DNA of 64,000 bases, taken from contig JASLWR010000004.1 in NCBI GenBank assembly GCA_030740765.1, positions 24,873-88,872 on the forward strand, read 5' to 3'. The stretch is from Thermoplasmatota archaeon. Its GTDB lineage: Archaea > Thermoplasmatota > Penumbrarchaeia > JASLWR01. Each line of letters begins with the position of its first letter. Position 1 is the stretch's first letter. Positions 11,801 to 48,033 of the stretch are shown here, piece after piece. The notes beneath the pieces are model-generated. The model searched no databases, was not told the origin of the DNA, and worked only from the letters and a program-made list of their open reading frames with translations. A program made the position numbers and the translations under genes.

Positions 11801-13234
11801 ATGAACATTCCCGGAACCTTCGTAGACCACGGTCATGTTGCTAAAAATCAGTTTTTCCTTCCCCCTTATCCAGTTTCCCCTATCAACAATACCCTGATAT
11901 TCACCCTCCACCACGGTCTCTCCCACGAGCTCAAGGTCATTTTCTACACGGAATAGATAAGGGAATCGATCAAGGTTGAATCTCCCGGAGCTTCCGGTTG
12001 TATTTATAAAACAATCTATAAGCTCCTCGTGAGGGAATGTGAAGTCTAGCACGAAGGAAAAATTTATCCACCATTTCTCCACATTATTGTTGGAAAACGC
12101 CGAATCACCCAGCAGTTCCAGATGATTTCCGAGGTCATGAACCTTGTAAAAGTTCTTTTGTGTTCCATTGAATCCGAGGCTTATGTTGGTGTTGTTGTAA
12201 TCTATGTAGATTCGGAGGTCGGAAAGATCGTCAAGAGATTCGAAGGTGGTGACGTTGATACCCAGTTTATAGGAACGGTACCCGGCATAGCATACTGCGC
12301 TTTTATTATCCGAATCAATCAGGTTGACCGATTCGGGCTCGGGGGGACGGGCCGTGGGGAAATTATCCTTAATCATATCGATATATTTTACCATCTGCAG
12401 AAGTTCGTTGTTTCCGCGGTTGCCCCAGTCGAAGGTCATCATGTTCATCATGACATACCCTTCGTCCAGCACGTATTCTATGAAAGCCGGTTTATTGTTC
12501 GCGTTGGACCAGAGAATGTCATTCCACTTGTTGGTTTCGGGATTTGTTCCGAGGTTCGCTCCACCGGAGTCCGCAAGCATACCCGGCGCGGTAACATAAC
12601 CGTGGCAGGTGGTACCCCAGCCCTGAAAATTATTGGCATTAAGTCCATTTCCGCCGTAGCCCTGACCGGTAATCCATTCGTGATCGTTATCAGCCACCGT
12701 AGGGTTCTCGTCGGTGTTGCCGGATTGCTGGTAACTACCGAAGTTCGAACCACCCGGTCCGGTAACATCCTGTCCGGAATTATGCGCGGCATTTGCAACG
12801 AAGATACCACCTTTCTTCACATATTTCTCGATAATACCCCCGTTCATCATTGTCTTTAATGATCCGTCTGCAATATCACCCTGGCAGCCAGTATAAATAG
12901 CATAATAGCGGTCGAAGAGGTACTCTGAATTGTGCTGGGCCGTTACCCCGGGCTGCTCCACATCAAAAGGGATTCCTCTGTTTGTTAGATGATTTTGTAG
13001 AGTGTTGGTACGATCCCCGCCCGAAGAGCAGACCAGCACCTTGTTCGCGGCTCTACTGGACCACTGTTTTCCGCCAATTGTGCCTGCATTTCGAATTTTC
13101 TCATCAATTGATTCAACGGTACTTATGGAATGGTCGCTCCAATCCGTGAGTAATGGGACACTAATTGCAGGGATTATCAATAGTATACAAAGTAACAGGG
13201 GAAGACTGCGTAAGTGGGAAATCACGCTTTTCAT
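8879..13234 (-). CDS. Giant single-pass surface protein, paralog C (1451 aa); same architecture, ThuA/GATase1-like head, C-terminal Zn ribbon MQCHSCGNNYSAEIVELPALVACPVCQTQG.
   Basis: Long ORF in the track. Signal peptide MKSVISHLRSLPLLLCILLIIPAISVP. Motifs FDATDSYDEDGDNLSYYW (PKD) and DSDGDGFSDGFERE. TM helix, then a P-rich tail. Confidence 0.85.
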   Translation of the reverse strand: MKSVISHLRSLPLLLCILLIIPAISVPLLTDWSDHSISTVESIDEKIRNAGTIGGKQWSSRAANKVLVCSSGGDRTNTLQNHLTNRGIPFDVEQPGVTAQHNSEYLFDRYYAIYTGCQGDIADGSLKTMMNGGIIEKYVKKGGIFVANAAHNSGQDVTGPGGSNFGSYQQSGNTDENPTVADNDHEWITGQGYGGNGLNANNFQGWGTTCHGYVTAPGMLADSGGANLGTNPETNKWNDILWSNANNKPAFIEYVLDEGYVMMNMMTFDWGNRGNNELLQMVKYIDMIKDNFPTARPPEPESVNLIDSDNKSAVCYAGYRSYKLGINVTTFESLDDLSDLRIYIDYNNTNISLGFNGTQKNFYKVHDLGNHLELLGDSAFSNNNVEKWWINFSFVLDFTFPHEELIDCFINTTGSSGRFNLDRFPYLFRVENDLELVGETVVEGEYQGIVDRGNWIRGKEKLIFSNMTVVYEGSGNVHPDDNFFDVVVRDRMANEWWDNESSGKSVSIEAISGNATDPEEEYQISIVNIPEEGVCAKNLYFPLKIDAAAPLSPVNLQCRPDSFKGKSAEHTNKQEVFVTWDEVEDPASGLRGYYYSLMDNSTTENGSFTNETEVEINELPEGPVPVYVWCVDNVGNVGGAAASEILVDLSLPYFSNYTPLDGSWHNHTDVDCSVDIHDGKGGGVDGATIEYSVSKNGVHGFDLWIPVWMPEKTEPMTPVVKYVFLEGENNYLKWRAKDISGNGFVESSPVNIKIDNTPVNFAQTISPQEEWYLQKTITTKITVNDAGSGVDPESLEMRISTSGPTDFRSWMSIEPENIIKSGEDGFEISVTFTYAEGTENYIMFRGTDIVGNPFTLSDKFNLKIDTSPVYFGTFTPEENEYSNQQTVECFVEILDDGSGVDPGTVEYSMASGAGGDNDSFRPWKKVVNVVIGNPTQVLLELEFDWGPDNFIRWRADDKVGTGHNISKPYRVWVNSRPEAVISSPDQASYFRFDREIYFDATDSYDEDGDNLSYYWSSNVSANKSMSHLALFGSRLTPGKHIITLFVFDGHGYNESTDVRIEVGSKTDYETDSDGDGFSDGFERESGTDPYNGAVIPEGEPDIVPAESAGILGESSSLLLIILGCILLLILLILIIFFIVRKKRKSKEEKVAAPVPSFPRQPPYGQGPHSAQYAPLVQGYGGVMPAPMAGMPGSPAPPLMLAPGPGFVNPVQFQAAAPGQALTGAAALNTGYAGGSSYLLPTFSTDQGMQELGRLALPPAPEPSPAPVVFTGLEFPIQASVAPLGPDIGSPMPIADTTNISPVDNTLPSSPAPPIPPNAMEAAPPSISPPLMPPTGVEAVFPLPLPTPSMIPEVPAVPPEGSGDLSELDSYLAYLEDMTKPPEPAPPVASPTAPPAIPPAIPSVPEGAPAPVTNEITMQCHSCGNNYSAEIVELPALVACPVCQTQGMIESL

Positions 13235-13390: not shown

Positions 13391-16300
13391 TCATATTGAT
13401 TCTATAACTCCTTGCGTCTGGCAAACCGTGCAGGTGACCAGTGCAGGGAACTTAGCAATCTCCGCTATATAGTTATTGCCGCAGGAATGGCACTGCATAG
13501 TAATTTTATTAGTCGGGGGAACCGGACTTTCTTCCGGAACCGGGGGTACGTCGGAAGGTGTTGGCTCCGGTGGCGGGGACAATCCACCCAGGGTAGTTAG
13601 ATATGTGTCGAGTTGGGATAAATCACTATCCGCTGAAGTGTCTATTGGAGGTACGCCAAGCACTAAAGATGAAGTGCTGCTAGGGGAAATAGTGGTGGGT
13701 TCCGGTGGAGCCGGGGGTGCTTCACCACTTAGCGGAATGGGTGCTGGAGGCGATTGGAAAGGGTTTTCCATTGCACTTACCCCAGGTAATAATGCAGGTT
13801 GGGCTGAAAGATCCGGAGCGGTCATCTGGGTTGGAGTGAACGCTCCAATCATTCCTTGATCTTCCGAAGGAGGTGGTCCCGGCGGTAAGGCCATTCTGTC
13901 GAGGTTCTGCGGCCCCTGATCGGTACTGAATAATGGTAATGAATATGCGGTACTGCCTGTCATCCCTGTCCCAGACTGACCGTAAAGAGCCAGCTGCTGT
14001 GGCTGAGTTTGCTGGACTTGATTCGGGCCGGAATATTGAGTGTTTGATATATCAGGTACTATCGACTGTATTAGAGGAGGATTTTGAGCTCCCCGCATCC
14101 CCATAACGGCTGCCTGATATTGCGCCATTTCCCCGTACCCTTTCTGCTCAACAGGAATAAATTGACCCTGGGGATAAGGATGCTGGGCCGGTCCGTACAT
14201 TGATTGCGGCATAGGTGACCGGATCGGAACCGAAACATCTCTCACTTCGTCCTTTTTTCTTCTCCTCACAATAAATATGATGACCAAAACCAGTATGGTC
14301 AAAAATAACACAATACCAAGAATGACGAAGAATAGCGAAGAGCCTCCTCCGAGTATGCCACCGCTTTCGGAGATGACGATATCAGGCTCGCCATCCGGGC
14401 TAATGGCACCGTTGTATGGGTCGGATCCTGATTCCCGTTCCAGTCCGTCTGAGAATCCGTCCCCGTCGCTGTCCCGCTGAAAATCGACCTGGCTGATCAC
14501 CTCTAGCTTAACTTTCGTACTCTCGTTGTAACCGTGTCTGTCCGAAACGAATAATGTGATCGTATGTTTTCCAGGGGCTAATCCGGCGCTGAAATAGGCG
14601 TCGAATCCGATTGAACGATTCACACTGACATTTGAGGACCAGTAATAGCTAAGATTGTCCCCATCCTCGTCACTTGAACCGGAAGCATCAAAAGTAATTT
14701 CGCTATCGAACCTGAAATACGACCCTGGATCGGGTGAGGCGATTGCCGCCTCCGGCCTGGAATTCACCCATACCCGGTATGGCAGCGATATGTTGAGCCC
14801 GGTACCCATCATGTCGTCGGCACGCCACCGGATAAAATTGTCATATCCCCAATCGAATTCCAGCTCTATCAGAACCTGCGTGGGATTTCCCGCAACAACA
14901 TTTACCACCTTTTTCCATGGCCCGAATATCTTTTCGTCGCCCCCCATCCCGGTGCCCCCTGCTCCATTTGCCACGGAATACTCAACCGTCGCTGGATCCA
15001 CCCCCGAACTGGCATCGAGTATCTGGATGAAACATTCCACCTTCTCGTTGTCTGCATATTCGTTCTCATCCGGTGTGAATAAACCAAAATAAATGGGAGA
15101 TGTATCGATTTTCAGATTGAATTTATCGGAGAGAGTGAAGAGATTGCCTACCATATCGGTTCCTCTGAACATAATGTAGTTATCCTTTCCCTCCGCGTAT
15201 TTGAAAGTCACTGTTATCTCAAAGCCGTCTTCACCGGATTCGCTGATGTTTTCGACATCTACGGACTCCCACCGGCCGAAATCGTTGGGGCTAGACGTGG
15301 ATATCCTTGCTCCAAGACTGTCCGGGTTCACACCGCTTCCAATGTCGTTAACCAATATCTTTGTGGTTATTTCTTCATGATCATACCATTCCACCTGAGG
15401 TGATATCAGCTTTGCAAAATTGATAGGAGTGGTGTCCACTTTTATATTGTACGAGGGTGATTCGACAAACCCATTTCCAGTGATGTCCTTTGTGCGCCAT
15501 TTAATATAATTTTCCTCGCCCTCCTGAAATACGTATTTGATATTTGGCACCATGGGTTCATTCAACTCGGGTATCCACGCGGGAATCCAGAAATCGAAAC
15601 CGTGCATCCCATCATTGGACACGGAGTACTCGATAGTGCTGCCGTCCACACCGGATCCAGTGCCATCATAAATCTCAATCGAGCAGTCGATATCAGTATG
15701 ATTGTGCCATGAACCATCCTCCGGGGTGTGATTCGAAAATACTGGCGGTGTCAGGTCCACAAGTATACCGGATGAGGCGGCCGTGCCGATATTTCCGACC
15801 TTGTCCACACACCAAACGTAAATTTCCGCGAATTCCTCGTTCAGTTTCTCGATCTTGACCTCTGTGACATTGGTGAATGTCCCGTTACCAGTTCCCGACT
15901 TATCCACCGGGGAATAATAATAGCCCATCAGACCCGATGAGTGGTCCTCAACCGGATCCCATGTGACGAACATCTCGGCGCGATTGGTATGCTCGGTCTC
16001 CTTGTCCTTGAAATCATTGGCATGGCACTTTAAGTTGACGGGGAAGAGAGGCGGGTCCGCATCTATTCTTAGTGGAAAGGTCAGATTTGTCATGCAAATG
16101 CCTGTTCCGGGTATGTTCTCGATGGTGATGAGATATTCTTCTTCCGGGTCCGTATCGTTTCCGGAAGTGATGTTTATCTCGATATTTTCTCCCATGCTCT
16201 CGTTATCCCACCAGGCGCTCCCGTTATTATCGGCAACCCTGACATCGAAATAGTCATCATCGGGGTAGATGTCCGGAGCACCTGCATATCGTACCTTGAG

Positions 16301-17620
16301 ATTGCTGACCTTAATCCTTTCCCTGCCCCGTATCCAATCGTTCTTTTTCAACTCACCCTGATATTCACCTGTAAGATCGGGAATACCAACCAGCTCCAGG
16401 TCATTCTCGACCTTGAAAAGGTGCGGAAAGCGGTCCGTTCTTACAATTCCCGTGATGGCAGCAGTACTGATATAGCAGTCCACCAGTTCTTCATGTGGGA
16501 ATGTGAAATTGAAAATTACTGAAAAATTCAACCACCACCGCTCGACCCCGTCCGTGGAAACCTTGGAATCGTCAACATTCAATTGAACGTGCCCGTCCAA
16601 GTCCTGATATTTGTAGAAGCGAGATTGTGTCCAGTTGTAGCATAGTGTAGCATTGGTAGTATTATAATCAAGGAAAACCTTGACCTCGGAAACCTCGGTA
16701 AGGTCCCTTGCGGAGGTGACATTCACGCTGAGGGTGTAGTTTCTATGACGGGCATAGCATATATTATTCCCGTCACCCTGTCCCAAAATGGCTGCGTTAT
16801 CGGTATAGGCCGTGAGGTCCACTTCCAGCCAACATGCTACTGGCGTCCCACCCTGGTTCTGACCAACCGTGAGAAGAACTTCGGAGCCGAGCGGAATGGT
16901 GGTTATCTCACCATGGGACGCGGAACTACCGGAGAACGATGGCCGGTTCATGTTTCTAACCATGGGATGATTCACGGATGCCACGAAATTATGGCTATTA
17001 CCATTTCCATTTGTCCTTACACCGAAAGGACCGGGGACACCCCTGGACCACCGGCGTTGGTAATTCGTACCGAACATGTCTATCAATATTCCACCGTCGT
17101 TCACGTATTTCTCCATTGAAGGGACCAGTGACTCCATCTGGTTCAGATGCTGGTTCGGCTGGTACTCGGAAATAATGATCATCCGGTAAATGTTCGGATC
17201 GAAATCGTTTGCATTGATCCCGCCAGCGCTTTTCTGGGTGAATTGTATTCCTCTGTTGTTCATCTCCCGGCGCCAGCCGTCAGACCATCCCTGGTGATCC
17301 CATATGATAAGTATGGCTCCCGAATCCGCATGGGTGGGCCATAACCAATCGAAAGTATTGATGATAAAATAACGGGAATGTTGGCCGTTGCCGTAGCCGT
17401 AACTTGCTATGGTCCCCGTGACAAAATAAATGCCTTTGTCACCAGCGGTACGTTTGTTGGACGAGATGGGCGGAGGCTTTGAGGGGCTCTTTACGTTCAA
17501 CCCCACATCGTGGTTTTCGCTGAGAAGTATTTCAGAGCAAATAGTAAGATATCCCGTTCCTATGAAACACAAAACAACAGCTATCGACACCACCACGGGC
17601 CATGGATTCGTTCTACTCAT
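13391..17620 (-). CDS. Giant single-pass surface protein, paralog D (1409 aa); same architecture, C-terminal Zn ribbon MQCHSCGNNYIAEIAKFPALVTCTVCQTQG.
   Basis: Long ORF in the track. Signal peptide MSRTNPWPVVVSIAVVLCFIGTG. Motifs FDASGSSDEDGDNLSYYW (PKD) and DSDGDGFSDGLERE. TM segment, then a P/Q-rich tail. Confidence 0.85.
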   Translation of the reverse strand: MSRTNPWPVVVSIAVVLCFIGTGYLTICSEILLSENHDVGLNVKSPSKPPPISSNKRTAGDKGIYFVTGTIASYGYGNGQHSRYFIINTFDWLWPTHADSGAILIIWDHQGWSDGWRREMNNRGIQFTQKSAGGINANDFDPNIYRMIIISEYQPNQHLNQMESLVPSMEKYVNDGGILIDMFGTNYQRRWSRGVPGPFGVRTNGNGNSHNFVASVNHPMVRNMNRPSFSGSSASHGEITTIPLGSEVLLTVGQNQGGTPVACWLEVDLTAYTDNAAILGQGDGNNICYARHRNYTLSVNVTSARDLTEVSEVKVFLDYNTTNATLCYNWTQSRFYKYQDLDGHVQLNVDDSKVSTDGVERWWLNFSVIFNFTFPHEELVDCYISTAAITGIVRTDRFPHLFKVENDLELVGIPDLTGEYQGELKKNDWIRGRERIKVSNLKVRYAGAPDIYPDDDYFDVRVADNNGSAWWDNESMGENIEINITSGNDTDPEEEYLITIENIPGTGICMTNLTFPLRIDADPPLFPVNLKCHANDFKDKETEHTNRAEMFVTWDPVEDHSSGLMGYYYSPVDKSGTGNGTFTNVTEVKIEKLNEEFAEIYVWCVDKVGNIGTAASSGILVDLTPPVFSNHTPEDGSWHNHTDIDCSIEIYDGTGSGVDGSTIEYSVSNDGMHGFDFWIPAWIPELNEPMVPNIKYVFQEGEENYIKWRTKDITGNGFVESPSYNIKVDTTPINFAKLISPQVEWYDHEEITTKILVNDIGSGVNPDSLGARISTSSPNDFGRWESVDVENISESGEDGFEITVTFKYAEGKDNYIMFRGTDMVGNLFTLSDKFNLKIDTSPIYFGLFTPDENEYADNEKVECFIQILDASSGVDPATVEYSVANGAGGTGMGGDEKIFGPWKKVVNVVAGNPTQVLIELEFDWGYDNFIRWRADDMMGTGLNISLPYRVWVNSRPEAAIASPDPGSYFRFDSEITFDASGSSDEDGDNLSYYWSSNVSVNRSIGFDAYFSAGLAPGKHTITLFVSDRHGYNESTKVKLEVISQVDFQRDSDGDGFSDGLERESGSDPYNGAISPDGEPDIVISESGGILGGGSSLFFVILGIVLFLTILVLVIIFIVRRRKKDEVRDVSVPIRSPMPQSMYGPAQHPYPQGQFIPVEQKGYGEMAQYQAAVMGMRGAQNPPLIQSIVPDISNTQYSGPNQVQQTQPQQLALYGQSGTGMTGSTAYSLPLFSTDQGPQNLDRMALPPGPPPSEDQGMIGAFTPTQMTAPDLSAQPALLPGVSAMENPFQSPPAPIPLSGEAPPAPPEPTTISPSSTSSLVLGVPPIDTSADSDLSQLDTYLTTLGGLSPPPEPTPSDVPPVPEESPVPPTNKITMQCHSCGNNYIAEIAKFPALVTCTVCQTQGVIESI

Positions 17621-17815: not shown

Positions 17816-18271
17816 ATGTCAGCAGCACCATATGATGTATCCCCCCTCACCATGATACACGAGGTATTCCCCGGTGACACAAACGATTACGGCACCATGT
17901 TCGGCGGCAACGTCATAGCATTGATGGACAAGGCGGCAGGTATCTGTGCTTCCAAGTTCGCCCATGAAAATTTCGTCACCGCAAGTGTCGACAGGTTGAA
18001 ATTTCTTGCTCCCATAAAACAGGGCTATGTGGTTGAAGCAACCGCAAGAGTCGTTTATACCTCGAAACATACTGCCGGTCTGGAGGTCATTGTCACCTCA
18101 AAGGACCGCAAGACATGGGTGGCACAACACTGCTCCAGGGCCTTTTTTTTTATGGTGGCGGTAGGAGAGAACGGCAAGATAAAGGAAATTCCCCAATTGG
18201 TACCCATCACCGGAGAAGAGAGGGAAAAGTTTGAAGAAGTTAGAGCCATCCACAGACGCATTAGGAAATAA
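17816..18271 (+). CDS. Acyl-CoA thioesterase, hotdog fold (YciA/BFIT-like)
   Basis: Motifs PGDTNDYGTMFGGNVIALMDKAAGICA and VTASVDRLKFLAPIKQGYVVEATARVV are typical of hotdog acyl-CoA thioester hydrolases. Divergently transcribed from paralog D. Confidence 0.65.
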   Translation: MSAAPYDVSPLTMIHEVFPGDTNDYGTMFGGNVIALMDKAAGICASKFAHENFVTASVDRLKFLAPIKQGYVVEATARVVYTSKHTAGLEVIVTSKDRKTWVAQHCSRAFFFMVAVGENGKIKEIPQLVPITGEEREKFEEVRAIHRRIRK

Positions 18272-18467: not shown

Positions 18468-21400
18468 ATGAGAAAAATAATGTTATTTACGGTTATTCTG
18501 TTGTTGATGGCGCCTCTCAATGTATTTTTTACAGCCCACCGTTCATCGTTTGTCTCTGACACCGGTTTCGGTTCCAATGACGGGAATAGCAAACTCCATG
18601 TACAAAGTGGAGGTAGAGATGCGACCGCGAATCCTTTTGATTCAGTATTTTTCGATGATTTTGAAAGCGGTTTCACGAATTGGACCCATTCGGGTGTCCA
18701 GATCAATCAGGAAGCCAATAATGAACTGAGCCCAGTGAACGCGGCCAACCTAGACGGCAATGGGGATACTCTTACTTCCAATGCCATTGATCTCCGGGGT
18801 TATGGGTTCGGCCATTTGGAATACGGGGTTCAACCCGGCGGAGGAAGTGATCCGCCAGAGGTGGGGGATGATCTGACAGCCTGGATGAACCTGCAAACCA
18901 TCGGCTGGCATAGGGTAAACATCAGCAAGGGAACCGGTAACCCAAGACCTGATTTCTTGACCGTGAACGTCGCGCTTCCCAAAACCGCTTTCCATGCGGG
19001 TTTTCAGATACGTTTTACCACTCCTGCAATTGAAGCAAATGCCGATGATTGGTATATTGATAACGTGCGTGTAAGCGCATCTGAGGGATCTAATTTATTT
19101 TTTGATGATTTCCCCCCAAATCCTCCCGACAATGCCAAATGGCCAGTATCACTGGGAACACCAGTGGTAAATACAAATGCCCAGGCCATTCCAAGCACGG
19201 GGAACTCTCTGAACCTGGATGGTTCCGGCGATACACTACAATCAGGGACCATCAATTTGGGGAGGGTGAGCGAGGCATATATATTTTATTTCTGGGAGCA
19301 GGGAGATGGAAGTAACGGCAACCGGGACGAACCGGAAAATATGGATAATCTCAAAATCGAATATTATATCGACGATCCGGCCCCTCTATGGTTAGAGGTG
19401 GAGGTTACATCACAGGAAAGAGGAGGCGACCCCGGCAGAGCGTTTTTCATGCTTTCCACTTTTTCGTTACCGTGGGACGCTCTTCATGACAATTTCAAAT
19501 TCAGATTACATACCCCTCAAGGAGATAATAATCTTGATGACTGGTTCATTGATGACATAGGATTGAATGCGGCACCCTCCTATTCCGTCCCTTTCGAGGA
19601 TAATTTTGATGACGGACAACTTGCCGCCGCGAAATGGCCCGGCGGGGACCGAAAAGGGTCACCCCAAGTAAACACCAGGGGCGCGAATGAACCCTCGCTG
19701 ACCTATTCTCTCAATCTGGATGGCAGCGGTGATACGGTTGTGTCAGAAAAAATCGACACGTCCTGGGCACCATGGGCCAGCCTTACGTACTGGTGGCAGC
19801 AAGGGGGAGGGGGGGACGAACCGGAAGCCAATGACGATCTCATCGTGGAGATAAACGTGAGCTCAGGGTGGCGTGTTCTCAAAAAACACCTGGGTGCAAC
19901 CGCAGGAACCAATACATTTACGATGGAGGAATTCGTTCTTCCCCAGGACGCAATTTACGACAAATTCAGGGTTAAGTTCAGCACCACCCAGGGCCAGAAC
20001 AGCAAGGATGACTGGTTTATCGATAACGTTAGCGTGAGAAAGGGGAAAGTAGAAAATCCTTCAGATAAGTTTCAGGATTTTTTCGAATCGGGGAACCTCC
20101 TATCGAACTGGGAAATATTGGAGGGTAATCCACAGATCAACGCGGACGGTCAAAATGAACCCTCGCCATCATCTTCTCTTAATCTCGACGGTGAAGGCGA
20201 CATGATTAGCAGCGGAGGGCTTAATCTAGGACAAGCTGCTACGGCTGTTCTCAGCTTCGATTGGCAGCAGAAAGGCGGGGGTGACGATCCGGAAAACGGG
20301 GACGATCTCTATGCAGACATACTTCTCATGAAGACGGGATGGTTTAACATCTTTCAAGCAAAGGGAGTGGACCAGGCCAATAACTTCTATACCAACTTCT
20401 CATTCGTGCTACCCCAGACTGCTCTCCACGGCAATTTTAAAGTCAGGTTCAGAGTAGGCTCCGCGGAAGGGGTAGGGAAGGACGATTGGTTCATCGACAA
20501 CGTATTGATAAAGGGTAAAGATGGCATGGGATTCAAAAGGGTGGGTATCTACAACGAGTATTCCAACAAGGAGAAGGAAGGAATCAACCCGGCGAAGGCA
20601 CTCAGTTCCCAGTTCACCGATTACAAACTGTACCTTTTCGATGACTACCGTTATGCAGCAGAAAATCTCAGCTCTCTTGATTTCTTCATCATCTGTGAAC
20701 AGGAAAGCCTGGCAGCAGGGAAGGCGGGGGACATTCATAACCACTGGAAGAATTCCATGGCGGATTTACTTAACTATACCGGAAGGGTAGTGGTGCTTGA
20801 CGGCGGGTCCGGAAATTCCAGACTTTTGGTGAGCTCATTTCTAAGCTCCACCGGTCATCAGAATATCCCGGGAAATCCCAACGTGGACAATGACATGCCA
20901 AATCATCCAATTTCCGTTGGAATTCCAAATATCTTCGCTGGCCCTTCGGAAGTGGCTCGTTTTACCGGCGTCAATGGGCGAGAGGTGATGACCGTGAACA
21001 ACAACCCGGTGGTTGTTGAGAAGAGATATGCACGGGGATCGGTGATGTTATTTGGTCTCGATTACTCCGAATGGAATTCGTTCACCGAGAAATTACTTTT
21101 CAATGCTTTAAACTGGTCTGTGATCAATAAGATCCAGGTCAACAAACCCACCATAGCAGAAAATGATGTGTATGCGGGTCTGCCGGTAATGGTCTCTGTG
21201 GATGTGAGCGATACCATCGGACCCGAAGATGTTAGCAAGATCACCTTGGAATTCAACGACACTGGCGTCAGTTTTGAATACGAAGATGGAAATGTAAATA
21301 AATTTGGCAATAATAATGGAACCGTTTCTCTGGATTCATGGCATACCGGAAAAAAAGTGGAGAACCTTACACTCAACCTTAACCTAACATTCGGGTGGGA

Positions 21401-24347
21401 CTTTCCGGTGGGGGTGCCCGTAGATGTCATGGTGAAAGGTTATGCGTCAATGGCCGATAATAATGAACACGAAAACGAAACCTTAGGTCTCTTTACCGTT
21501 AAGAACGAGGTTGCTTTCTTTGGAACGCCGGTGGCAAAAAACAGTACTGGGGACGTGATCCCCTCCGGTGGTTACTGCAAGGGGGGTGACGTGATCACTC
21601 TAACCGGTATAAAGGTTGTTTACAGTGGAACCGAGGACAAATACCCGCCTGACGAGCAATTTGACGTCAACGTCTGGGGTGATGGTGGTGACGACCATTG
21701 GGTGGACATGGTTTCATCTGGAGAGGAGATATCCATCGAAGCCACAATGCCTAATAGTGGTATGAATAATTATTCCTTCAAATTTAACCTGTCAGGTCCT
21801 GCCAGGGCTAATTCGGATCCGGTGGCGTTTTATTACGTGAAAATAGATAATGTCACGCCTCGTCTTTCGAATCCTTTCCCAGAAGAGGGGATGTGGTTTA
21901 ACAGCACCAATGTGAAGTGTAGTATCAATATCAACGACACCGAACAATCCGACGACCTGAGCGTGGTAAAATGCTCATACTCCATTGATGGCAACCAAAC
22001 CTGGTCCAATTGGGTGAATGTGGATTCGATCGTTGATGGTGTGGCGGAAAAGACCCTGACCCTTGCTCAGGGAAAGGTGAATCTCGTGAAGTGGAATGCC
22101 TGGGACCGTTTGGGTAATGGACCCATCGAGTTCGGCCCCACCCCCGTATGGATCGATAGCGAAGGTGTGGAGTTCAGTGATTTTGAACCTTTAGGCAAGA
22201 TCGAGGATCTTATGCCCACATGCACGATCAATGTCTCAGATAGCTTGTCAGGGGTCGGCGATCAGGTATGGGTGCGACAATCAACCAATGGTGGAAATAC
22301 ATGGGATGACTGGACTCAACCGGAAAAAACACCAAACGACGATGGATTCGGACTTTCATACCGAGCCACTTTGCAGGAAGGAAGTGGCAACCGCATCCAG
22401 TGGAAAGTTGAGGATGTCGCGGGAAATGTGAATACCAGCGAATTCAAAATAACCGTGGATACGGAGTTCACCATCCCCGAGGTGGAACTGACCTTTCCGG
22501 GGAACGGGACCAACACGAGTTTGAGGCCCAAGCTGGAGTGGAGCCTGGCCAAAGGGGGTGCAGGAGTGAACTTCAAACTGTTCCTTTCGCTAACGGCTGA
22601 TATAGATACCGATGCCGATACACCGAGAACCGAGACCGAGAACCTATCATATACATTTGACGAGGATATTGCCGATATGACCACCTATTACTGGTCGGTA
22701 ATTCCGGTCAAGGACAACGACGTGGGTATCTGTAAAAGCGGGGTCTGGTCATTTACGGCCATGGAGGGGACTCTACCCGAGCTAAAACTGCAATCACCAG
22801 GGGATTCGGACAAGGCAGAAATCCGTCCCACATTGAGATGGGATTTGACCAGGGCAAAGGAGGGCGTTAAGTATCGTGTCTATGTAAGCAATAACAGTGT
22901 TATCGATACAACAAACGTGTCAGGAGCGAAAAAGATCTTGGATGACAAATCGTATGAATTTGTGGAAGATCTGGTGGATGGCGAGACATATTACTGGATA
23001 GTGATTCCCTTTATTACGGAAGGGGGGATCGACTCTGATGGAAGTTGCCTAAGTGGGGTCTGGTCCTTTATTATAGATGCGAACTTCACCATAAAATGGG
23101 AATTTGATATTGCGGTGGAGCACGAAGCAAAGGATGCCGAGTTCGAGGTCGGGGATCACATGAACTTAACCGTAATAATAACGAATTTGGGTAATTCCCT
23201 CGACATTTACAACCTCTCCATCAGCGAAGATTGGAACTACACCGCTATAGGCTCCCTCGATGTAGCTGACAACGCTACCGGCGACATCAAAATATCAATA
23301 GTACTGCCGCTGGACATCACTCTTGGAAATCACACTTTGGTTATTACCGTTACGTCAACCGGCAATAACACAATAGAGACCGAAATGGTTTCATATGCAA
23401 TAATACAGCCTGGAGGGGTGAATCCTCATGATGACACGAACGAGACGGGAGGAGGTTTCTTTTCGGATATCCCCATGCTCTGGATCATTATCGCCATCGT
23501 GGTGCTCTTCCTGATCATCGTGATAATCGTGATCATCGTTAGAAGACGGAACGATGACTGGGATGACGACGAGGACGACGACGATTACGATGACGAATAC
23601 GACGAGGACGAAGATGAAGAAGAGGAGGATTTCGGTCGTATTCGTAAGGATGGAGCCTCACCCATGCTGGCAACTGGCGCCCAGATGGAACCGTGTACCA
23701 ACACCAACTGCCGTAAACCCATCCCGACAAACACTATGTTCTGCACACATTGCGGAGTGAAACAGGGCCAGCAAGCCGAGACTCCTACAACCGCTTCGAA
23801 GCCGGTTGAAACTGAGATAGAGATCGAGGACCTGGATGTGGAAGAGGATTCGGCCGTTACCCTGGATGAGCTTATGAACCGAGCTTCCCAGTTAATAGAC
23901 ACTCCCAAAAAGGAGGAGCCCGTAACGGAAACTGTTGACGAGCCGGATATAGAGGTCGTTGGCGAGGTAAAGGAAGATAAAGGACTTACTATCGATGATG
24001 TTACCTCCGTGGACCAGCTACTGGACATCATGGTAGTGGAGAGCGAGCCATTCGATGATGACGATGAAGACATTATCGAGGTCGTTGCCACCGCGCCCTT
24101 GGAGGAAGATGACGATGAAGCTTTACCATTACCCACGGTCTCCGCTGCCTCGCTTTACGAGGAGGACGACGACGAGGATCTGGCAGCACCCGAACCCATT
24201 CTTTCCATAGAGGATGTGATGATGGAGATCGCCGGGGAGCCTGACCTTGATGAACCCCCGGAACCGGATCGCGCACCTCCGGGCCTAGCGCCTCCGGCTC
24301 ATGCACCACCGGGTAATGCCCCGCCGCCTCCGCCTCCCCCGGAGTAG
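18468..24347 (+). CDS. Giant surface protein (1959 aa). Signal peptide, four tandem MAM-like ~150-aa repeats, ThuA/GATase1-like region, further beta-rich domains, one TM helix, poly-acidic stretch, Zn ribbon, acidic region, poly-proline C-terminus.
   Basis: Each repeat begins F(D/E)DxFExG and ends DDW(Y/F)IDN(V/I), with LNLDGSGDT in between. TM segment MLWIIIAIVVLFLIIVIIVIIV. Acidic stretch RRRNDDWDDDEDDDDYDDEYDEDEDEEEED. Zn ribbon CTNTNCRKPIPTNTMFCTHCG. C-terminus PPGNAPPPPPPPE. SD-like aggtgg lies 10 nt upstream. Confidence 0.85.
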   Translation: MRKIMLFTVILLLMAPLNVFFTAHRSSFVSDTGFGSNDGNSKLHVQSGGRDATANPFDSVFFDDFESGFTNWTHSGVQINQEANNELSPVNAANLDGNGDTLTSNAIDLRGYGFGHLEYGVQPGGGSDPPEVGDDLTAWMNLQTIGWHRVNISKGTGNPRPDFLTVNVALPKTAFHAGFQIRFTTPAIEANADDWYIDNVRVSASEGSNLFFDDFPPNPPDNAKWPVSLGTPVVNTNAQAIPSTGNSLNLDGSGDTLQSGTINLGRVSEAYIFYFWEQGDGSNGNRDEPENMDNLKIEYYIDDPAPLWLEVEVTSQERGGDPGRAFFMLSTFSLPWDALHDNFKFRLHTPQGDNNLDDWFIDDIGLNAAPSYSVPFEDNFDDGQLAAAKWPGGDRKGSPQVNTRGANEPSLTYSLNLDGSGDTVVSEKIDTSWAPWASLTYWWQQGGGGDEPEANDDLIVEINVSSGWRVLKKHLGATAGTNTFTMEEFVLPQDAIYDKFRVKFSTTQGQNSKDDWFIDNVSVRKGKVENPSDKFQDFFESGNLLSNWEILEGNPQINADGQNEPSPSSSLNLDGEGDMISSGGLNLGQAATAVLSFDWQQKGGGDDPENGDDLYADILLMKTGWFNIFQAKGVDQANNFYTNFSFVLPQTALHGNFKVRFRVGSAEGVGKDDWFIDNVLIKGKDGMGFKRVGIYNEYSNKEKEGINPAKALSSQFTDYKLYLFDDYRYAAENLSSLDFFIICEQESLAAGKAGDIHNHWKNSMADLLNYTGRVVVLDGGSGNSRLLVSSFLSSTGHQNIPGNPNVDNDMPNHPISVGIPNIFAGPSEVARFTGVNGREVMTVNNNPVVVEKRYARGSVMLFGLDYSEWNSFTEKLLFNALNWSVINKIQVNKPTIAENDVYAGLPVMVSVDVSDTIGPEDVSKITLEFNDTGVSFEYEDGNVNKFGNNNGTVSLDSWHTGKKVENLTLNLNLTFGWDFPVGVPVDVMVKGYASMADNNEHENETLGLFTVKNEVAFFGTPVAKNSTGDVIPSGGYCKGGDVITLTGIKVVYSGTEDKYPPDEQFDVNVWGDGGDDHWVDMVSSGEEISIEATMPNSGMNNYSFKFNLSGPARANSDPVAFYYVKIDNVTPRLSNPFPEEGMWFNSTNVKCSININDTEQSDDLSVVKCSYSIDGNQTWSNWVNVDSIVDGVAEKTLTLAQGKVNLVKWNAWDRLGNGPIEFGPTPVWIDSEGVEFSDFEPLGKIEDLMPTCTINVSDSLSGVGDQVWVRQSTNGGNTWDDWTQPEKTPNDDGFGLSYRATLQEGSGNRIQWKVEDVAGNVNTSEFKITVDTEFTIPEVELTFPGNGTNTSLRPKLEWSLAKGGAGVNFKLFLSLTADIDTDADTPRTETENLSYTFDEDIADMTTYYWSVIPVKDNDVGICKSGVWSFTAMEGTLPELKLQSPGDSDKAEIRPTLRWDLTRAKEGVKYRVYVSNNSVIDTTNVSGAKKILDDKSYEFVEDLVDGETYYWIVIPFITEGGIDSDGSCLSGVWSFIIDANFTIKWEFDIAVEHEAKDAEFEVGDHMNLTVIITNLGNSLDIYNLSISEDWNYTAIGSLDVADNATGDIKISIVLPLDITLGNHTLVITVTSTGNNTIETEMVSYAIIQPGGVNPHDDTNETGGGFFSDIPMLWIIIAIVVLFLIIVIIVIIVRRRNDDWDDDEDDDDYDDEYDEDEDEEEEDFGRIRKDGASPMLATGAQMEPCTNTNCRKPIPTNTMFCTHCGVKQGQQAETPTTASKPVETEIEIEDLDVEEDSAVTLDELMNRASQLIDTPKKEEPVTETVDEPDIEVVGEVKEDKGLTIDDVTSVDQLLDIMVVESEPFDDDDEDIIEVVATAPLEEDDDEALPLPTVSAASLYEEDDDEDLAAPEPILSIEDVMMEIAGEPDLDEPPEPDRAPPGLAPPAHAPPGNAPPPPPPPE

Positions 24348-25096: not shown

Positions 25097-26656
25097 GTGA
25101 ATGTTTTGTCCATGGAAGAGAAGATCGAGGAGCTAAGGAGAAAGAAAGAGGAAATGAAGCTGGGTGGCGGTAAGGAGCGTATTGTTCAACAGCACAAAAA
25201 GGGTAAATTAACGGCAAGGGAAAGGATCGATCTATTGTTGGATAACGGCAGTTTCATAGAGATGGATGCATTCGCGCTTCATCATTGCACGGATTTCGGT
25301 ATGGAAAAGAAACGCGTGCTTGGAGATGGTGTGGTAACAGGTTACGGCAACATCGACGGACGGCTGGTTTATGTATTTTCACAGGACTTCACGGTATTCG
25401 GCGGTTCACTGGGTTGGAAATTTGCCGAAAAGATCTGCAAGGTCATGGATATGGCCATGAAGAACGGCGCACCTGTGATCGGCCTTAATGATTCGGGTGG
25501 TGCCCGGATCCAGGAAGGAGTAATATCGCTGGGCGGTTATGCCGAGATATTTTTCAGAAATGTCATGGCGTCCGGAGTGATCCCTCAGATCTCCGCAGTA
25601 ATGGGACCATGCGCGGGAGGGGCGGTCTATTCACCCGCCATAACGGATTTTATCTTCATGGTGAAGGAAACCAGTCACATGTTCATAACCGGTCCCAACG
25701 TAATAAAGGCTGTTACCGGGGAGAAGGTCAGTTTCGAGCAGCTTGGGGGAGCCATGGCCCACAACGAGAAGAGCGGCGTCGCGCACTTTGCGGCCGAGAA
25801 CGAGGAGAACTGCATCGAATACATAAAGACCCTTTTTTCCTTTCTTCCGTCGAATAACATGGACGATCCACCTCGAGTAATGGTCGGTGACGATCCGAAC
25901 CGGATGGACACGGAACTGCTGAAGATAATTCCGGACGAGTCTGACAAACCCTATGACATGAAAGACATAATCCGCCGAGTGGTGGACAACGATGAATTTC
26001 TTGAGGTACATAAGCATTGGGCAATGAATATAATAGTGGGTTTTGCAAGACTCGACGGCTACTCAGTTGGTATTATCGGTAACCAGCCGAATGTTCTGGC
26101 CGGTACTCTCGATATAAATTCCTCGACGAAGGCTGCGCGATTCGTCAGGTTCTGTGATGCTTTCAACATTCCCCTCTTGACCTTCGAGGACGTTCCGGGT
26201 TTCCTTCCAGGCACTTCCCAGGAATACGGCGGAATAATCCGAAACGGGGCCAAATTATTATATGCATACAGCGAGGCCACTGTTCCAAAGATGACCGTTA
26301 TAACCCGAAAGGCATACGGTGGGGCCTATGACGTTATGTGCTCGAAACACATACGGGCGGATATAAACTTTGCATGGCCATCGGCAGAGCTTGCGGTAAT
26401 GGGCCCGGGCGGTGCGGTAAACATAATATTCAGAAAGGAAATTCAGGCGGCCGAGGACCCAGAAAGAAGGACTGATGAACTAGTCGCCCAGTACCGTGAA
26501 AAATTCGCCAATCCCTATATTGCAGCCGAGATGGGTTACATTGATGACATAATCGAGCCTCAGGAGACCAGACCCCGGATAATAAACGCTTTAAAGACCC
26601 TGTTGAACAAAAGGGAATCCCGCCCGGCAAAGAAACACGGAAATATACCTTTGTGA
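25097..26656 (+). CDS. pccB: Acyl-CoA (propionyl/acetyl-CoA) carboxylase, carboxyltransferase subunit
   Basis: N-terminal [39 protein letters not shown]. Carboxyltransferase domains throughout ([22 protein letters not shown]). 519 aa. Confidence 0.9.
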
Positions 26657-26660
26657 TCAC

Positions 26661-28196
26661 ATGTTCCGGAAAATACTGGTGGCCAATCGAGGGGAGATCG
26701 CTCTCCGGGTCATGAGGACTTGCAGGGAAATGGGTATCTCCACCGTTGGAATTTACTCCGATATCGACGCGTATGCTCTTCATGCGAGGTATGCCGACGA
26801 ATCATACAGGGTCGGTGAAAACCCGTCTAGAAAAAGTTACCTGGATGCCGACAGGATCATCGAAGTTGCAAAAGAGACCGGTTCGGATGCAATTCATCCC
26901 GGTTATGGCTTTCTCGCGGAAAATGCCGATTTTGCCCGGAAATGCGAAACGAATGACATTATTTTCATCGGGCCGTATTCCGATTCAATGGCGAAGGTTG
27001 GAGATAAGATCGCCTCGCGTCGATTGGCTAAGAAGGCAGGGATACCCATAACTTCCGGGAGCGATGGTGCCGTAGACGAGAACAATGCCATGGAAATTGC
27101 CCGTGAAATCGGCTATCCTGTGATACTGAAATCCTCGGCTGGTGGAGGCGGGATAAGCATGGGAGTGGTGGAGGAGCCCGGGGACCTGATAAATAAACTC
27201 GATATCGCCCGTTCATCATCGTTATCGTCCTTTGGTGACCCGAATATATTCATTGAAAAATATCTCCTGAGGCCGAGGCATATCGAATTTCAGATTCTGG
27301 CGGATAAACACGGCAATATCATACACCTGGGTGAGCGGGAATGCTCGATCCAGCGAAGATTCCAGAAGTTGATAGAAGAAGCTCCAAGTGTTGTTGTGGA
27401 TGAAGAGACTCGAAATCTTATTGGGGAACGGTCGGTGGAAATTGCGAGATTGGCGGGCTATGTGAACGCGGGGACCATTGAATTTCTGTACCAGGACGGG
27501 GAATTCTTTTTCAATGAGGTCAATGCCAGGTTGCAGGTTGAGCATCCCATCACGGAGCTTGTGACCGGTGTGGATCTTGTAAAGGAGCAAATTCGTATTG
27601 CCCATGGGGCCGAACTGGGGTTTTCACAGAGCGACATTAAATGTAGGGGATGGGCCATGGAATGCAGGATCAACGCAGAGGATCCGTACAATAACTTCAT
27701 CCCTTCCCCTGGAAAGGTTACAGGCTACGTAGCTCCTGGCTCTATTGGGGTCCGTGTCGATTCGGGTATTGTGTCTGGCTCCCTGATCCCAACGTTTTAC
27801 GATTCTCTCTTCGCCAAGGTCGTGGTTCACGCGGATACCAGGGCCTCAGTGGTGGAAAGAATGGGCAGGGCATTGAGAGAGATGAGGGTAGAGGGGATCG
27901 ATACGAACATTCCGTTCCATTTGCATGTGATGGACGACGTATGCTTCAAGGAGGGAGACTTCGATACGAACTTCATCGTTAAAAGAGAAATAATTAAAGG
28001 CCTTTGCCGGGAAGGGGAAGAGCTTAGGCGCGAAATGAATAGAAGGGCTGCGGCGGTTTCGGTTGCCCTTGCCATGTCAAAGGGGCAAATGTCAAAATTT
28101 CATCGGATCGATAATGAAACGAGGTCGCATGATGCTGTCAGCAAATGGAAAATGGCGGGTAGGCTGGAGCGGCTTGGTAGGGGTTTGTCCTCATGA
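26661..28196 (+). CDS. accC: Biotin carboxylase subunit with ~60-aa C-terminal extension
   Basis: MFRKILVANRGEIALRVMRTCREMGI; ATP-grasp and BC motifs (EMNARLQVEHPITE). Confidence 0.9.
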   Translation: MFRKILVANRGEIALRVMRTCREMGISTVGIYSDIDAYALHARYADESYRVGENPSRKSYLDADRIIEVAKETGSDAIHPGYGFLAENADFARKCETNDIIFIGPYSDSMAKVGDKIASRRLAKKAGIPITSGSDGAVDENNAMEIAREIGYPVILKSSAGGGGISMGVVEEPGDLINKLDIARSSSLSSFGDPNIFIEKYLLRPRHIEFQILADKHGNIIHLGERECSIQRRFQKLIEEAPSVVVDEETRNLIGERSVEIARLAGYVNAGTIEFLYQDGEFFFNEVNARLQVEHPITELVTGVDLVKEQIRIAHGAELGFSQSDIKCRGWAMECRINAEDPYNNFIPSPGKVTGYVAPGSIGVRVDSGIVSGSLIPTFYDSLFAKVVVHADTRASVVERMGRALREMRVEGIDTNIPFHLHVMDDVCFKEGDFDTNFIVKREIIKGLCREGEELRREMNRRAAAVSVALAMSKGQMSKFHRIDNETRSHDAVSKWKMAGRLERLGRGLSS

Positions 28197-28723
28197 AATT
28201 CGACCTGTTATTGGACGGAAAAACTTACGAAGTCGAACTGAATATCGGGAAAACCGTTGTTGTAAAACTTGATGGTGTCACTTATAAAGCGGAATTGGAC
28301 CGTACTGAAAAAGATATTTATATATTACTGAACGGAACTAAATCTCACGTGCGGTTTACCGGATCGCACGTATCGGTGGACGGCCATAGACACATGGTAG
28401 AAGTGAAAAATCTTAGGAGGGGGATGCCCCACTGGTCTAATACCTTGAAAGAAGTTGAAGAAGATGCTACCCACAGCTCTTCATTGGAAGAACCCAGGGG
28501 AGAAGGAGTTGTTTACCCGCCCATGCCCGGTAGAGTAATTGCCATAAACGTCAGTGAAGGCGATCGGGTCAATATCGGCTCGCCAATTCTGATACTCGAA
28601 GCCATGAAGATGCAAAATGAACTTTGCTCGAAATGGAACGGGGAGGTGCGGGAGATAAAGGTCACAGTGGGCGATATGGTAGAATCGGGGGATGTATTGA
28701 TGGTTATAGGGAACAAACATTAA
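28193..28723 (+). CDS. Biotin carboxyl carrier protein (biotinyl-lysine motif EAMKM)
   Basis: C-terminal ILILEAMKMQNEL...GDVLMVI; overlaps accC by 4 nt, which fits operon organisation. Confidence 0.85.
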   Translation: MKFDLLLDGKTYEVELNIGKTVVVKLDGVTYKAELDRTEKDIYILLNGTKSHVRFTGSHVSVDGHRHMVEVKNLRRGMPHWSNTLKEVEEDATHSSSLEEPRGEGVVYPPMPGRVIAINVSEGDRVNIGSPILILEAMKMQNELCSKWNGEVREIKVTVGDMVESGDVLMVIGNKH

Positions 28724-47930: not shown

Positions 47931-48033
47931 TCTGCCGGAAAGTTCCCCAAGACGAAAAAAGATTTTAAAAATGTAATAAAATTTTCTTATGATTCCACCC
48001 TAAATTTTTACGCTTATTTTTAAATAATATAGA

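Follow-up and report, generated by a model that had tools for sequence, protein, structure and literature searches.

A giant archaeal surface protein with reelin-type jelly-roll repeats and a conserved acidic, zinc-ribbon-containing tail

A gene of an uncultured, marine-type Candidatus Thermoplasmatota archaeon, at positions 18468..24347 (+ strand) of the 64-kb stretch of DNA that we analysed (the window), is an open reading frame with an ATG start encoding 1959 amino acids. We lean towards the view that its product is a type I membrane-anchored surface protein combining an ectodomain of binding modules with a disordered, acidic tail that recruits partners in the cytoplasm. From N to C terminus, the domain order is a signal peptide, four jelly-rolls of the reelin-sub-repeat/CBM type, a ThuA/GATase1-like domain, a β-rich stalk of ~770 residues, a transmembrane helix and a 268-residue tail (Table 1). 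The ectodomain is built of ordinary parts, and hence is unsurprising; the tail is more unusual.

Table 1 Positions in the window of the features of the 1959-residue protein and of the gene upstream
Feature	Residues	Positions	Strand	Evidence
Upstream 4HBT thioesterase gene		17816..18271	+	PF03061, E=1.7e-16
N-terminal signal peptide or signal anchor, MRKIMLFTVILLLMAPLNVFF...	1-24	18468..18539	+	Hydropathy peak at residues 1-24
Repeat 1, reelin-sub-repeat-like jelly-roll	57-203	18636..19076	+	
Repeat 2, reelin-sub-repeat-like jelly-roll	209-367	19092..19568	+	
Repeat 3, reelin-sub-repeat-like jelly-roll	373-524	19584..20039	+	Best Pfam stretch, residues 425-523 against PF21471
Repeat 4, reelin-sub-repeat-like jelly-roll	532-682	20061..20513	+	
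ThuA/GATase1-like alpha/beta domain	688-885	20529..21122	+	
Stalk, beta-rich, weakly Ig-like modules	893-1660	21144..23447	+	Weak family matches
Single transmembrane helix	1668-1691	23469..23540	+	Hydropathy up to 4.1; AF2 helix, pLDDT >90
Basic stop-transfer cluster RRRN	1692-1695	23541..23552	+	R/K cluster in 8/8 orthologs
Poly-acidic run containing W and Y	1696-1721	23553..23630	+	23/26 D/E
Conserved basic motif F[GS]RI[RK]K	1722-1727	23631..23648	+	R, I and K invariant
C4 zinc ribbon	Cys1743, 1748, 1759, 1762	23694..23756	+	Four invariant Cys; PF13240 and DZR matches
Conserved amphipathic helix 1, TLDELMNRASQLI	1796-1812	23853..23903	+	AF2 helix, residues 1799-1810
Conserved block 2, IDDVTSVDQLLDIMVVESEP-DDDDEDIIEVV-...-EALPLPTV	1841-1890	23988..24137	+	AF2 helix, residues 1848-1857
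Conserved helix 3, LSIEDVMMEIAG	1908-1926	24189..24245	+	AF2 helix, residues 1914-1922
Proline-rich C-terminus ending PPPPPPPE, then stop codon	1936-1959	24273..24344	+	

Ectodomain repeats, ThuA-like domain and stalk

All four repeats, which are 33–38% identical to one another, carry an (N)LDG(x)GD motif and an N-terminal F-acid-acid-x-F motif, and they end in DDWYIDNV (residue 193), DDWFIDDI (residue 357), DDWFIDNV (residue 514) and DDWFIDNV (residue 672). A prior sequence-only reading had described four tandem repeats with these motifs; the motifs are indeed present in all four, but are slightly more degenerate than described, as repeat 2 begins FFDDFPPN and repeat 1 carries NELSPVNAANLDGNGDT. 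The same reading had likened the repeats to cysteine-less MAM domains. They do have a jelly-roll β-sandwich fold, and the first Cys of the protein is at residue 743, with none in residues 1–742, but MAM membership does not hold. The MAM family (PF00629) matched none of the 24 repeat copies at E≤1, nor the full-length sequence at E≤0.1; its four disulfide cysteines are missing, and reelin scores clearly higher. Reelin sub-repeat B (PF21471) matches the whole protein with 52.7 bits, against a gathering cut-off of 27, and matches all 24 repeat copies scanned (best E=5e-6), with at least repeat 1 falling below the cut-off when taken alone (19.4 bits). Reelin sub-repeats are also the closest solved structures, with reelin found at E=1.8e-8 over the whole domain in a profile search of PDB sequences and at 6e-30 by Foldseek, and secreted S8 and C25 peptidases of bacteria contain the same module. 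The repeats do not form the complete reelin repeat, a horseshoe of sub-repeat A, EGF and sub-repeat B: they are joined by linkers of 5–8 residues, with no EGF-like module and no Cys between them.

Bound Ca2+ is common to reelin sub-repeats and CBMs (PMC4882317). Five acidic positions of the repeat alignment (D44, D78, D137, D138 and D142) are invariant, compatible with a putative Ca2+ site, and by analogy with reelin and CBMs the invariant acidic residues of the F-D-x-F-E, LDGxGD and DDWxID motifs probably hold structural Ca2+. At the position of the Asp-box, defined as S/T-x-D/N-x-G-x-x-W (PMC4882317), a shortened S/T-x-G-W alone remains.

The domain that follows the repeats has a class I glutamine amidotransferase-like/ThuA fold, in which E744, Q745 and H813 are invariant. 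No ThuA or GATase1 family HMM reaches threshold: ThuA (families PF06283 and PF07090 tested) and GATase1_like each matched in one of eight orthologs (E=0.011 and E=0.093, respectively), and the copy in the window matched neither. A conserved nucleophile Cys, as in catalytic GATase1, is lacking: C743 is the sole Cys of the domain and is Ser in four of the eight orthologs. A search over the whole protein detected no hydrolase or peptidase domain. Weak Pfam matches in the stalk are to Big_13, Ig_Rha78A_N, DUF11 and choice-of-anchor-T, and phmmer found no match between the stalk and PDB sequences.

Topology and conservation of the tail

Hydropathy identifies only two hydrophobic segments in the 1959 residues, the N-terminal signal and the transmembrane helix. 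The N-terminal start is conserved among orthologs, and AF2 places a helix at residues 2–13 and a disordered linker at residues 14–55. The RRRN cluster past the transmembrane helix is as the positive-inside rule expects, and an R/K cluster (RRR, KKR, KRR or KRKK) occupies this position in all eight orthologs. N-x-S/T sequons number 35 in the ectodomain, compared with 19.6 ± 3.9 in shuffled sequences (35 was reached in 1 of 2000 shuffles), and zero in the tail; judging from sequence, the surface protein is probably N-glycosylated. The two hydrophobic segments, the R/K cluster and the confinement of sequons to the ectodomain bear out the proposal of a surface protein that crosses the membrane once, by a transmembrane helix, and extends a tail into the cytoplasm, and they place that tail inside rather than outside the cell. 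No PGF precedes the transmembrane helix (GGGFFSDIPMLW...), as a PGF-CTERM/archaeosortase signal would have it, and 268 residues follow the helix where such a signal would have a short basic C-terminus.

Beyond the membrane, the chain reads RRRN, DDWDDDEDDDDYDDEYDEDEDEEEED (23 of 26 residues acidic), FGRIRK, CTNTNCRKPIPTNTMFCTHCG, a D/E-rich stretch, APPGLAPPAHAPPGNAPPPPPPPE and the stop codon, exactly as first quoted. Asp and Glu make up 30% of the tail, which has a net charge of −64 over 255 residues, or −25 per 100 residues compared with about −5 to +2 for cytoplasmic proteins in the window. At the protein's own composition, the chance expectation is 3e-12 for 26-residue stretches with at least 23 acidic residues and 4e-6 for runs of at least seven prolines. 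AF2, run with alignments of only eight sequences, modelled the transmembrane helix, the ribbon (pLDDT ~80) and three short helices, with the rest at pLDDT <50 and a pTM of 0.17; helix 1 has the highest hydrophobic moment of the tail (0.63). As modelled, the tail is an intrinsically disordered acidic chain that bears a C4 zinc ribbon and three short amphipathic helices and finishes in polyproline-Glu.

Every element of the tail recurs in eight full-length orthologs, in which conserved blocks are 51–94% identical compared with 23–27% for linkers, and the blocks stay conserved at overall identities down to 37%. The mean identity of the whole tail is 44%, not above that of the ectodomain (47%). 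The poly-acidic run is present in every ortholog (18–27 residues, of which 13–23 are acidic); its codons are mixed and do not form a clean microsatellite, with a weak imperfect (GACGAC)n signal. The F[GS]RI[RK]K motif has a mean pairwise identity of 71%, and the protein ends in four to seven prolines and a final Glu in eight of eight orthologs, the last eight residues averaging 94% identity and the proline run using a mixture of CCG, CCT and CCC. Between the window protein and its L001 ortholog, pN is 0.098 for the tail, 0.15 for the repeats, 0.19 for the stalk and ~0.03 for the three best-conserved blocks, values that, with dS saturated, are meaningful only relative to each other; the near-identical cluster members P0020 and P0026-28 were too similar to be of use for the selection analysis. 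In the same comparison, helix 1 is 93% identical (pN 0.03), block 2 is 94% identical (pN 0.03), with D, S, V, D and L invariant, and helix 3 is 93% identical.

The ribbon cysteines form two knuckles ~10 residues apart and are invariant in all eight orthologs; the first knuckle is CX4C in the window protein only and CX2C in the other seven. PF13240 and DZR (PF12773) match in eight of eight orthologs (best E 3.3e-6 and 1.3e-6), and the window protein itself reaches 20.7 bits where the cut-off is 25. The gene lies in a conserved cluster with two to three similar giant type I proteins, represented in the window by three paralogs on the minus strand (4264..8751, 8879..13234 and 13391..17620) that are 23–29% identical to residues 843–1362. 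The suggestion that the ribbon might group with those of this paralog array was not borne out: the ribbon HMM scores about −1 on the paralogs and the spacing differs (C-x10-C versus C-x18-C), which rules out a common origin. A likeness by eye between the tail motifs DVTSVDQLL and EALPMPTV and the paralog sequences DLSELDSYL and LALPPAP was unsupported by motif HMMs, among whose listed top matches the paralogs appear only through one non-significant ALP-motif match (i-E 25).

A whole-tail profile was searched against 1.84e9 representative proteins. Among the matches listed, full-length ones are confined to four 50%-identity clusters, all belonging to the family itself, and the remaining matches listed (the best 150 of about 1200) cover the ribbon element alone. 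The tail is thus as unusual as had been supposed, full-length matches among those listed being confined to its own orthologs, and there is one copy per genome. Likewise, no known family with a described function accounts for the protein, in keeping with the earlier view: its homology is to domain families only (reelin sub-repeat and zinc ribbon), and neither assigns a function to the whole.

Candidate short motifs were compared with known ones, using regular expressions for MIM1 and MIM2 from PMC8970359. The ESCRT-III MIM1 consensus [DE]xxLxxRLxxL[KR] has no strict match in the eight orthologs, in which a relaxed LxxR[A]xxL alone is conserved, and the MIM2 core (phi-P-x-phi-P, with charged x) occurs in one of the eight at a non-conserved site. 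We therefore rejected the tail as a binder of the Vps4/CdvC MIT domain through such motifs. The tail has neither a PPxY nor a P[TS]AP motif, and SUMO-interaction-like hydrophobic and acidic strands, which occur in some orthologs and are missing at every site in two of eight, were taken as uninformative. A Pfam scan of the 25 other flanking ORFs in the window found no SH3, WW, profilin, MIT or TPR domain as a polyproline-binding or otherwise obvious partner. Neighbouring genes are metabolic (thioesterase, acyl-CoA carboxylase and TCA-cycle enzymes), and a 4HBT thioesterase gene is a conserved neighbour, directly upstream of the ortholog at loci L001, L002, L081 and L083. Elsewhere in the window, a giant ORF with HEAT repeats (52447..56703) has no link to the gene, and Rfam and tRNA scans found nothing.

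Proposed function and alternatives

By analogy, we propose that the jelly-rolls, which lie farthest from the membrane, would bind a glycan or protein ligand outside the cell, on particles or on other cells: the same module occurs in S8 and C25 peptidases, and in structure it comes close to CBMs and to the cleaved-adhesin domains of gingipains. The conservation patterns of the tail sequences favour partner binding through short motifs, and the tail could be a string of such linear motifs by which at least one partner in the cytoplasm is recruited. Recruitment would allow the surface protein to be tethered or clustered, or to signal across the membrane, as the tails of eukaryotic adhesion receptors do. 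The acidic run probably holds the chain extended, clear of the anionic membrane, and may also be where a basic partner binds. More speculatively, the tail could do in a prokaryote what receptor tails do in eukaryotes, coupling a giant archaeal adhesin, physically or informationally, to an intracellular machine; this might come about through scaffold or cytoskeletal binding, through release of the tail by intramembrane proteolysis or through pausing, dependent on aIF5A, at the polyproline end. We regard this extension as distinctly unlikely, but if it were true, this small family of Thermoplasmatota would represent a transmembrane coupling module that is new and has no relatives elsewhere.

Several other explanations bear on the same observations. 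The protein could be a structural envelope component, S-layer-like or part of a glycocalyx, that forms a cell coat with the three giant paralogs and uses its tail as a bulky anchor or plug without specific partners. Like archaeal S-layer glycoproteins it is large, acidic, sequon-rich and membrane-anchored, and it resides in a conserved cluster with similar giants. We nevertheless consider this role unlikely, as the retention of specific blocks, ribbon cysteines and the terminal PPPP-E while linkers drift is unexpected of a mere anchor, the PGF motif is missing and the tails of the paralogs are unrelated. The S-layer anchors described so far end in a very short tail or carry a PGF-CTERM signal. 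In line with the metal binding suggested by the prior reading, the tail could serve as a cytoplasmic device for binding or buffering cations, in which acidic regions would take up Ca2+, Mg2+ or other metals with low affinity but in large amounts and the ribbon would take up Zn2+; we consider this quite improbable. The abundance of Asp and Glu and the four invariant cysteines would suit such a device, but bulk charge would not need conserved hydrophobic helix positions, the FxRIxK motif or a terminal polyproline, and one copy per genome fits capacity buffering poorly. That the tail is non-functional low-complexity sequence, generated by repeat expansion and drift, is scarcely credible: the (GACGAC)n trace and the mostly disordered prediction are what it would leave, but it is already contradicted by blocks conserved down to 37% overall identity, a lower pN in the tail than in the ectodomain, mixed proline codons and the invariance of the cysteines and terminal residue.

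Two further models invoke catalysis. By analogy with receptors subject to regulated intramembrane proteolysis, ligand binding or shedding could lead to cleavage of the transmembrane helix, so that the acidic tail with its zinc ribbon would be set free to act as an effector in solution. A type I protein whose tail is long, conserved and modular is of the appropriate kind, and the window contains a gene for an archaeal presenilin/SPP-family protease (58738..60774; PF06550, E=1e-68). The two genes are, however, 34 kb apart with unrelated genes between them, show no genetic linkage or shared regulation, and the tail revealed no effector domain, DNA-binding or otherwise, making this model very improbable. 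We see an equally slim chance that the protein is an extracellular enzyme with a catalytic ThuA/GATase1-like domain and jelly-rolls as substrate-binding modules; the sub-threshold family HMMs, the Ser in place of C743 in half of the orthologs and the lack of a detected hydrolase or peptidase domain argue against it.

Relation to known systems

Reelin sub-repeats (PF21471; PDB 2e26, 3a7q, 2ddu and 7lyu) are the best match to the archaeal repeats in both sequence and structure, sharing an 11-strand jelly-roll of ~150 residues, a C-terminal D-W-x-I-D-N-V strand and a tandem arrangement. The archaeal protein differs in having no EGF between sub-repeats, no cysteines, a degenerate Asp-box (SxGW), an archaeal host and a membrane anchor rather than secretion, and no receptor-binding function of reelin is transferable to it. 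Bacterial CBMs and gingipain ‘cleaved adhesin’ domains (PDB 4itc, 8xmz, 2zew and 4xup) are structurally close at only 9–20% identity, but the archaeal repeats have no enzyme domain attached. By contrast, the MAM domains of meprin, RPTPmu/kappa and neuropilin are set apart by their four conserved cysteines as well as by the lack of a Pfam match. Uncultured marine Thermoplasmatota are abundant heterotrophs whose attachment to surfaces has been inferred mostly from gene content (PMC6461757), and in this family a putative binding module of the reelin/CBM type caps a giant membrane protein of an archaeon.

The tail has partial parallels nearer to hand. The neighbouring paralogs are also type I giants that have part of the stalk in common and long tails with a zinc ribbon, but they lack reelin-like repeats, and their tails are P/Q-rich rather than acidic, with a C-terminal ribbon of C-x18-C spacing. 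PF13240 (Zn_Ribbon_1) and PF12773 (DZR) are generic prokaryotic families without a defined function that share the pattern CxxC-x10-(F)CxxCG, whereas here a single ribbon sits inside a family-specific acidic tail, in the cytoplasm and C-terminal to the membrane span of a type I giant. The cytoplasmic tails of cadherins and integrins likewise are disordered, with short conserved motifs, variable linkers and a multi-domain adhesive ectodomain; the analogy is functional only, there is no homology and, on the evidence of the window, the archaeal host has no eukaryotic set of adaptors. In prokaryotes, the tails of single-pass surface proteins are usually very short. Set against these, a conserved, selectively maintained tail of 268 residues implies that a partner binds it inside the cell and that there is some kind of coupling across the membrane in an archaeon; identifying the partner would provide a concrete, testable entry point.

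Domain architecture and topology

The open reading frame is genuine, and each element quoted for it in the sequence-only reading (four repeats, poly-acidic run, ribbon, acidic region and poly-proline end) was recovered by script; the interpretation offered there holds in part. The analysis shows how its product is built from domains, which features indicate its topology, where it is disordered and how it is conserved. There are only two hydrophobic segments, at aa 1–24 and 1668–1691, and cysteines are absent upstream of aa 743. The second segment is followed by RRRN, a 26-residue run containing 23 D/E, FGRIRK, CTNTNCRKPIPTNTMFCTHCG, a D/E-rich stretch, APPGLAPPAHAPPGNAPPPPPPPE and the stop codon; in every ortholog, an R/K cluster follows the single TM helix. 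We place the tail (aa 1692–1959) in the cytoplasm on the strength of this cluster, the signal sequence at the N terminus, an Ig/CBM-type ectodomain rich in sequons and a zinc site of four cysteines.

The four repeats end in DDW[FY]ID[ND] at aa 193, 357, 514 and 672 and share 33–38% pairwise identity over ~150 aligned residues, but their consensus is somewhat more degenerate than first proposed. Pfam places them in Reelin_subrepeat-B (PF21471), the whole protein scoring 52.7 bits where 27 is the cut-off; all 24 copies from six orthologs match this model, and none matches MAM at E≤1. In the PDB, the repeat profile reaches reelin (E=1.8e-8), covering the domain whole. An AlphaFold2 model of aa 1–899 (pLDDT 70.9) contains four beta-sandwiches, for which reelin is the top Foldseek match (6e-30), ahead of CBM22 (1e-11) and meprin (7e-8). 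The original description, ‘MAM-like jelly-roll’, is thus correct for the fold and wrong for the family, and MAM membership is ruled out; the repeats are reelin-sub-repeat/CBM-type modules without EGF domains or cysteines. Structural Ca2+ is common to reelin sub-repeats and CBMs (PMC4882317), and invariant acidic positions are compatible with a putative Ca2+ site in the repeats. By itself, the module occurs in hundreds of bacterial loci (Ignavibacteria, Zixibacteria, Planctomycetota), often inside S8 or C25 peptidases.

Among 5.8 billion protein clusters, the protein has eight full-length relatives (1910–1991 aa, 37–74% identity to the window protein in alignment), none with a functional name. 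A deposited member of its 90%-identity cluster, MDP6154849.1, is a hypothetical protein from a Candidatus Thermoplasmatota archaeon MAG. One-genome-per-species GTDB contigs hold a full-length ortholog in two species only, at loci L001 (72%) and L002 (45%).

Composition, conservation and structure of the tail

The tail was originally singled out as unusual, and it is: its acidic and proline runs far exceed chance (binomial expectations of 3e-12 and 4e-6), its net charge per 100 aa is −25 versus about −5 to +2 for cytoplasmic ORFs in the window, and its full-length matches are confined to its own family. In the ortholog alignment, variable linkers (23–27% identity) separate conserved blocks: the acidic run with embedded W/Y (mean identity 58%), F[GS]RI[RK]K (71%), the ribbon (55%, all four cysteines invariant), helix 1 LDELMNRASxLI (51%), block 2 IDDVTSVDQLLDIVVVESEP...DDDDEDIIEV (58%), EALPMPTV (48%), helix 3 LSLEDVMMEI (45%) and the terminal PPPP(P)E (94%). 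When the window protein is compared with L001, where dS is saturated, non-synonymous divergence (pN) is 0.15 for the repeats and 0.19 for the stalk against a lower 0.098 for the tail; helix 1, block 2 and helix 3 each lie near 0.03. Mixed codons in the proline run, and no more than a weak, imperfect DNA repeat in the acidic one, show that neither is a fresh microsatellite. The tail-coding region is also crossed by an antisense Ser-rich ORF of 183 aa, which mirrors the D/E codon runs and shows no sign of being a gene.

AlphaFold2 predicts the TM helix, the ribbon (pLDDT about 80) and three short helices (aa 1799–1810, 1848–1857 and 1914–1922), the first with the tail's highest hydrophobic moment; the remainder is disordered without globular packing (overall pLDDT 54, pTM 0.17). 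ESCRT MIM1/MIM2, PPxY and PTAP motifs failed explicit pattern tests in the tail.

When an HMM running from FGRIRK to the end was searched against 1.84 billion representative proteins, full-length matches came from only four 50%-identity clusters, all of the protein's own family. Among the best 150 of about 1200, the other matches covered only the ribbon, at profile positions ~3–130 and mostly 10–80, and the top ribbon-only matches inspected were generic proteins with several CxxCG...FCxxCG ribbons. PF13240 and DZR also match all eight tails. The ribbon thus appears to be a common prokaryotic module without defined function, and the remaining tail sequence is family-specific. A suggested grouping with the ribbons of the paralog array (three neighbouring giant type I proteins) did not hold, as those have C-x18-C spacing and escape the HMM. 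The first knuckle, CTNTNC (aa 1743–1748), is CX4C in the window species versus CX2C in the seven other orthologs, a two-residue insertion within the metal-binding knuckle; in P0008, the most divergent ortholog, an entire second ribbon is inserted after helix 1 instead. A second membrane protein with a zinc_ribbon tail in the window, a bPH_2-domain protein, ends in CGACGSQSPPGNKFCKGCG, with the same spacing as here.

Genomic neighbourhood

A 4HBT thioesterase lies directly upstream, on the same strand as the giant gene, in all five loci with upstream sequence (62–88% identity), and is kept even in L002, where the paralog array is absent. Intergenic gaps of 195–570 bp would accommodate separate promoters. 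Acyl-CoA carboxylase subunits follow downstream, their functions split over three genes; at L082, the locus of P0008, one fused protein holds biotin carboxylase, BCCP, ACC_central and carboxyltransferase. TCA-cycle and housekeeping functions fill the rest of the window, where GC content drops to 0.42–0.44 over 44–50 kb and again at 54–58 kb. The paralogs (51–60% mutual identity) carry TSP3 and PKD modules, a TM helix and P/Q-rich tails of 290–370 aa ending in a CHSCG-x18-CxVC ribbon; these tails are unrelated to the one described here, with none of its other motifs detectable.

Features of the window and of ortholog loci
Feature	Location	Strand	Remarks
Surface protein	18468..24347	+	1959 aa
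First ribbon knuckle	23694..23711		
Antisense ORF	23585..24136	-	
4HBT thioesterase	17816..18271	+	151 aa
4HBT thioesterase, L001	9350..9805		
4HBT thioesterase, L002	9188..9667		
4HBT thioesterase, L081	8965..9432		
4HBT thioesterase, L083	9210..9665		
Paralogs	4264..8751, 8879..13234, 13391..17620	-	1409–1495 aa
Carboxylase genes	25097..28723		
Fused carboxylase, L082	9811..15846		at least 2114 aa
HTH_32/HTH_23 (transposase-type) ORF, then ORF without family match	47388..49062	+	152 and 342 aa; may be a mobile-element remnant
Cytoplasmic protein	52447..56703	-	1418 aa; C-terminal HEAT repeats, weak ABC1-kinase-like stretch, no other family match
PF06550 protein	58738..60774	+	678 aa; E=1e-68, best stretch aa 471–663
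bPH_2 membrane protein	61607..62242	-	211 aa

Proposed ligand binding and partner docking, and alternatives

We lean, with slightly better than even confidence, towards a joint explanation in which the repeats bind an external ligand and the tail docks an internal partner. Outside the cell, the membrane-distal reelin/CBM-type modules would bind a glycan or protein, by analogy with the presumed role of the same module in bacterial secreted peptidases and gingipain adhesins. On the cytoplasmic side, one or more partners could dock on short motifs displayed by the disordered acidic tail, namely the ribbon, three amphipathic helices and the C-terminal polyproline-Glu, so that the cell could tether, cluster or read out the surface protein from the inside. 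All statements on ligands, on a need for Ca2+, on recruited partners and on any signalling are inferred. The 64-kb window contains no candidate partner domain for the polyproline or acidic motifs. A reading of the conservation pattern as the mark of an archaeal module dedicated to transmembrane coupling seems unlikely.

A purely structural coat protein is unlikely, though worth keeping in mind, and a tail that serves as a cation-binding device is improbable. Proteolytic release of the tail has a potential agent in the window's PF06550 gene, whose product joins a long N-terminal extension without family match to a C-terminal part of the archaeal presenilin/signal-peptide-peptidase family and might in principle process proteins with a single membrane pass; this gene is unlinked to that of the surface protein, however, and we regard release as very improbable, much as we do an enzyme with the ThuA-like domain at its core. 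That the tail is meaningless low complexity is contradicted by its conservation and scarcely credible.

In the libraries and collections searched, no counterpart of the tail has been described; it is restricted to this family and is under selection. The ectodomain combines known modules in a new way, and we class the whole as a single-pass prokaryotic surface binding protein.
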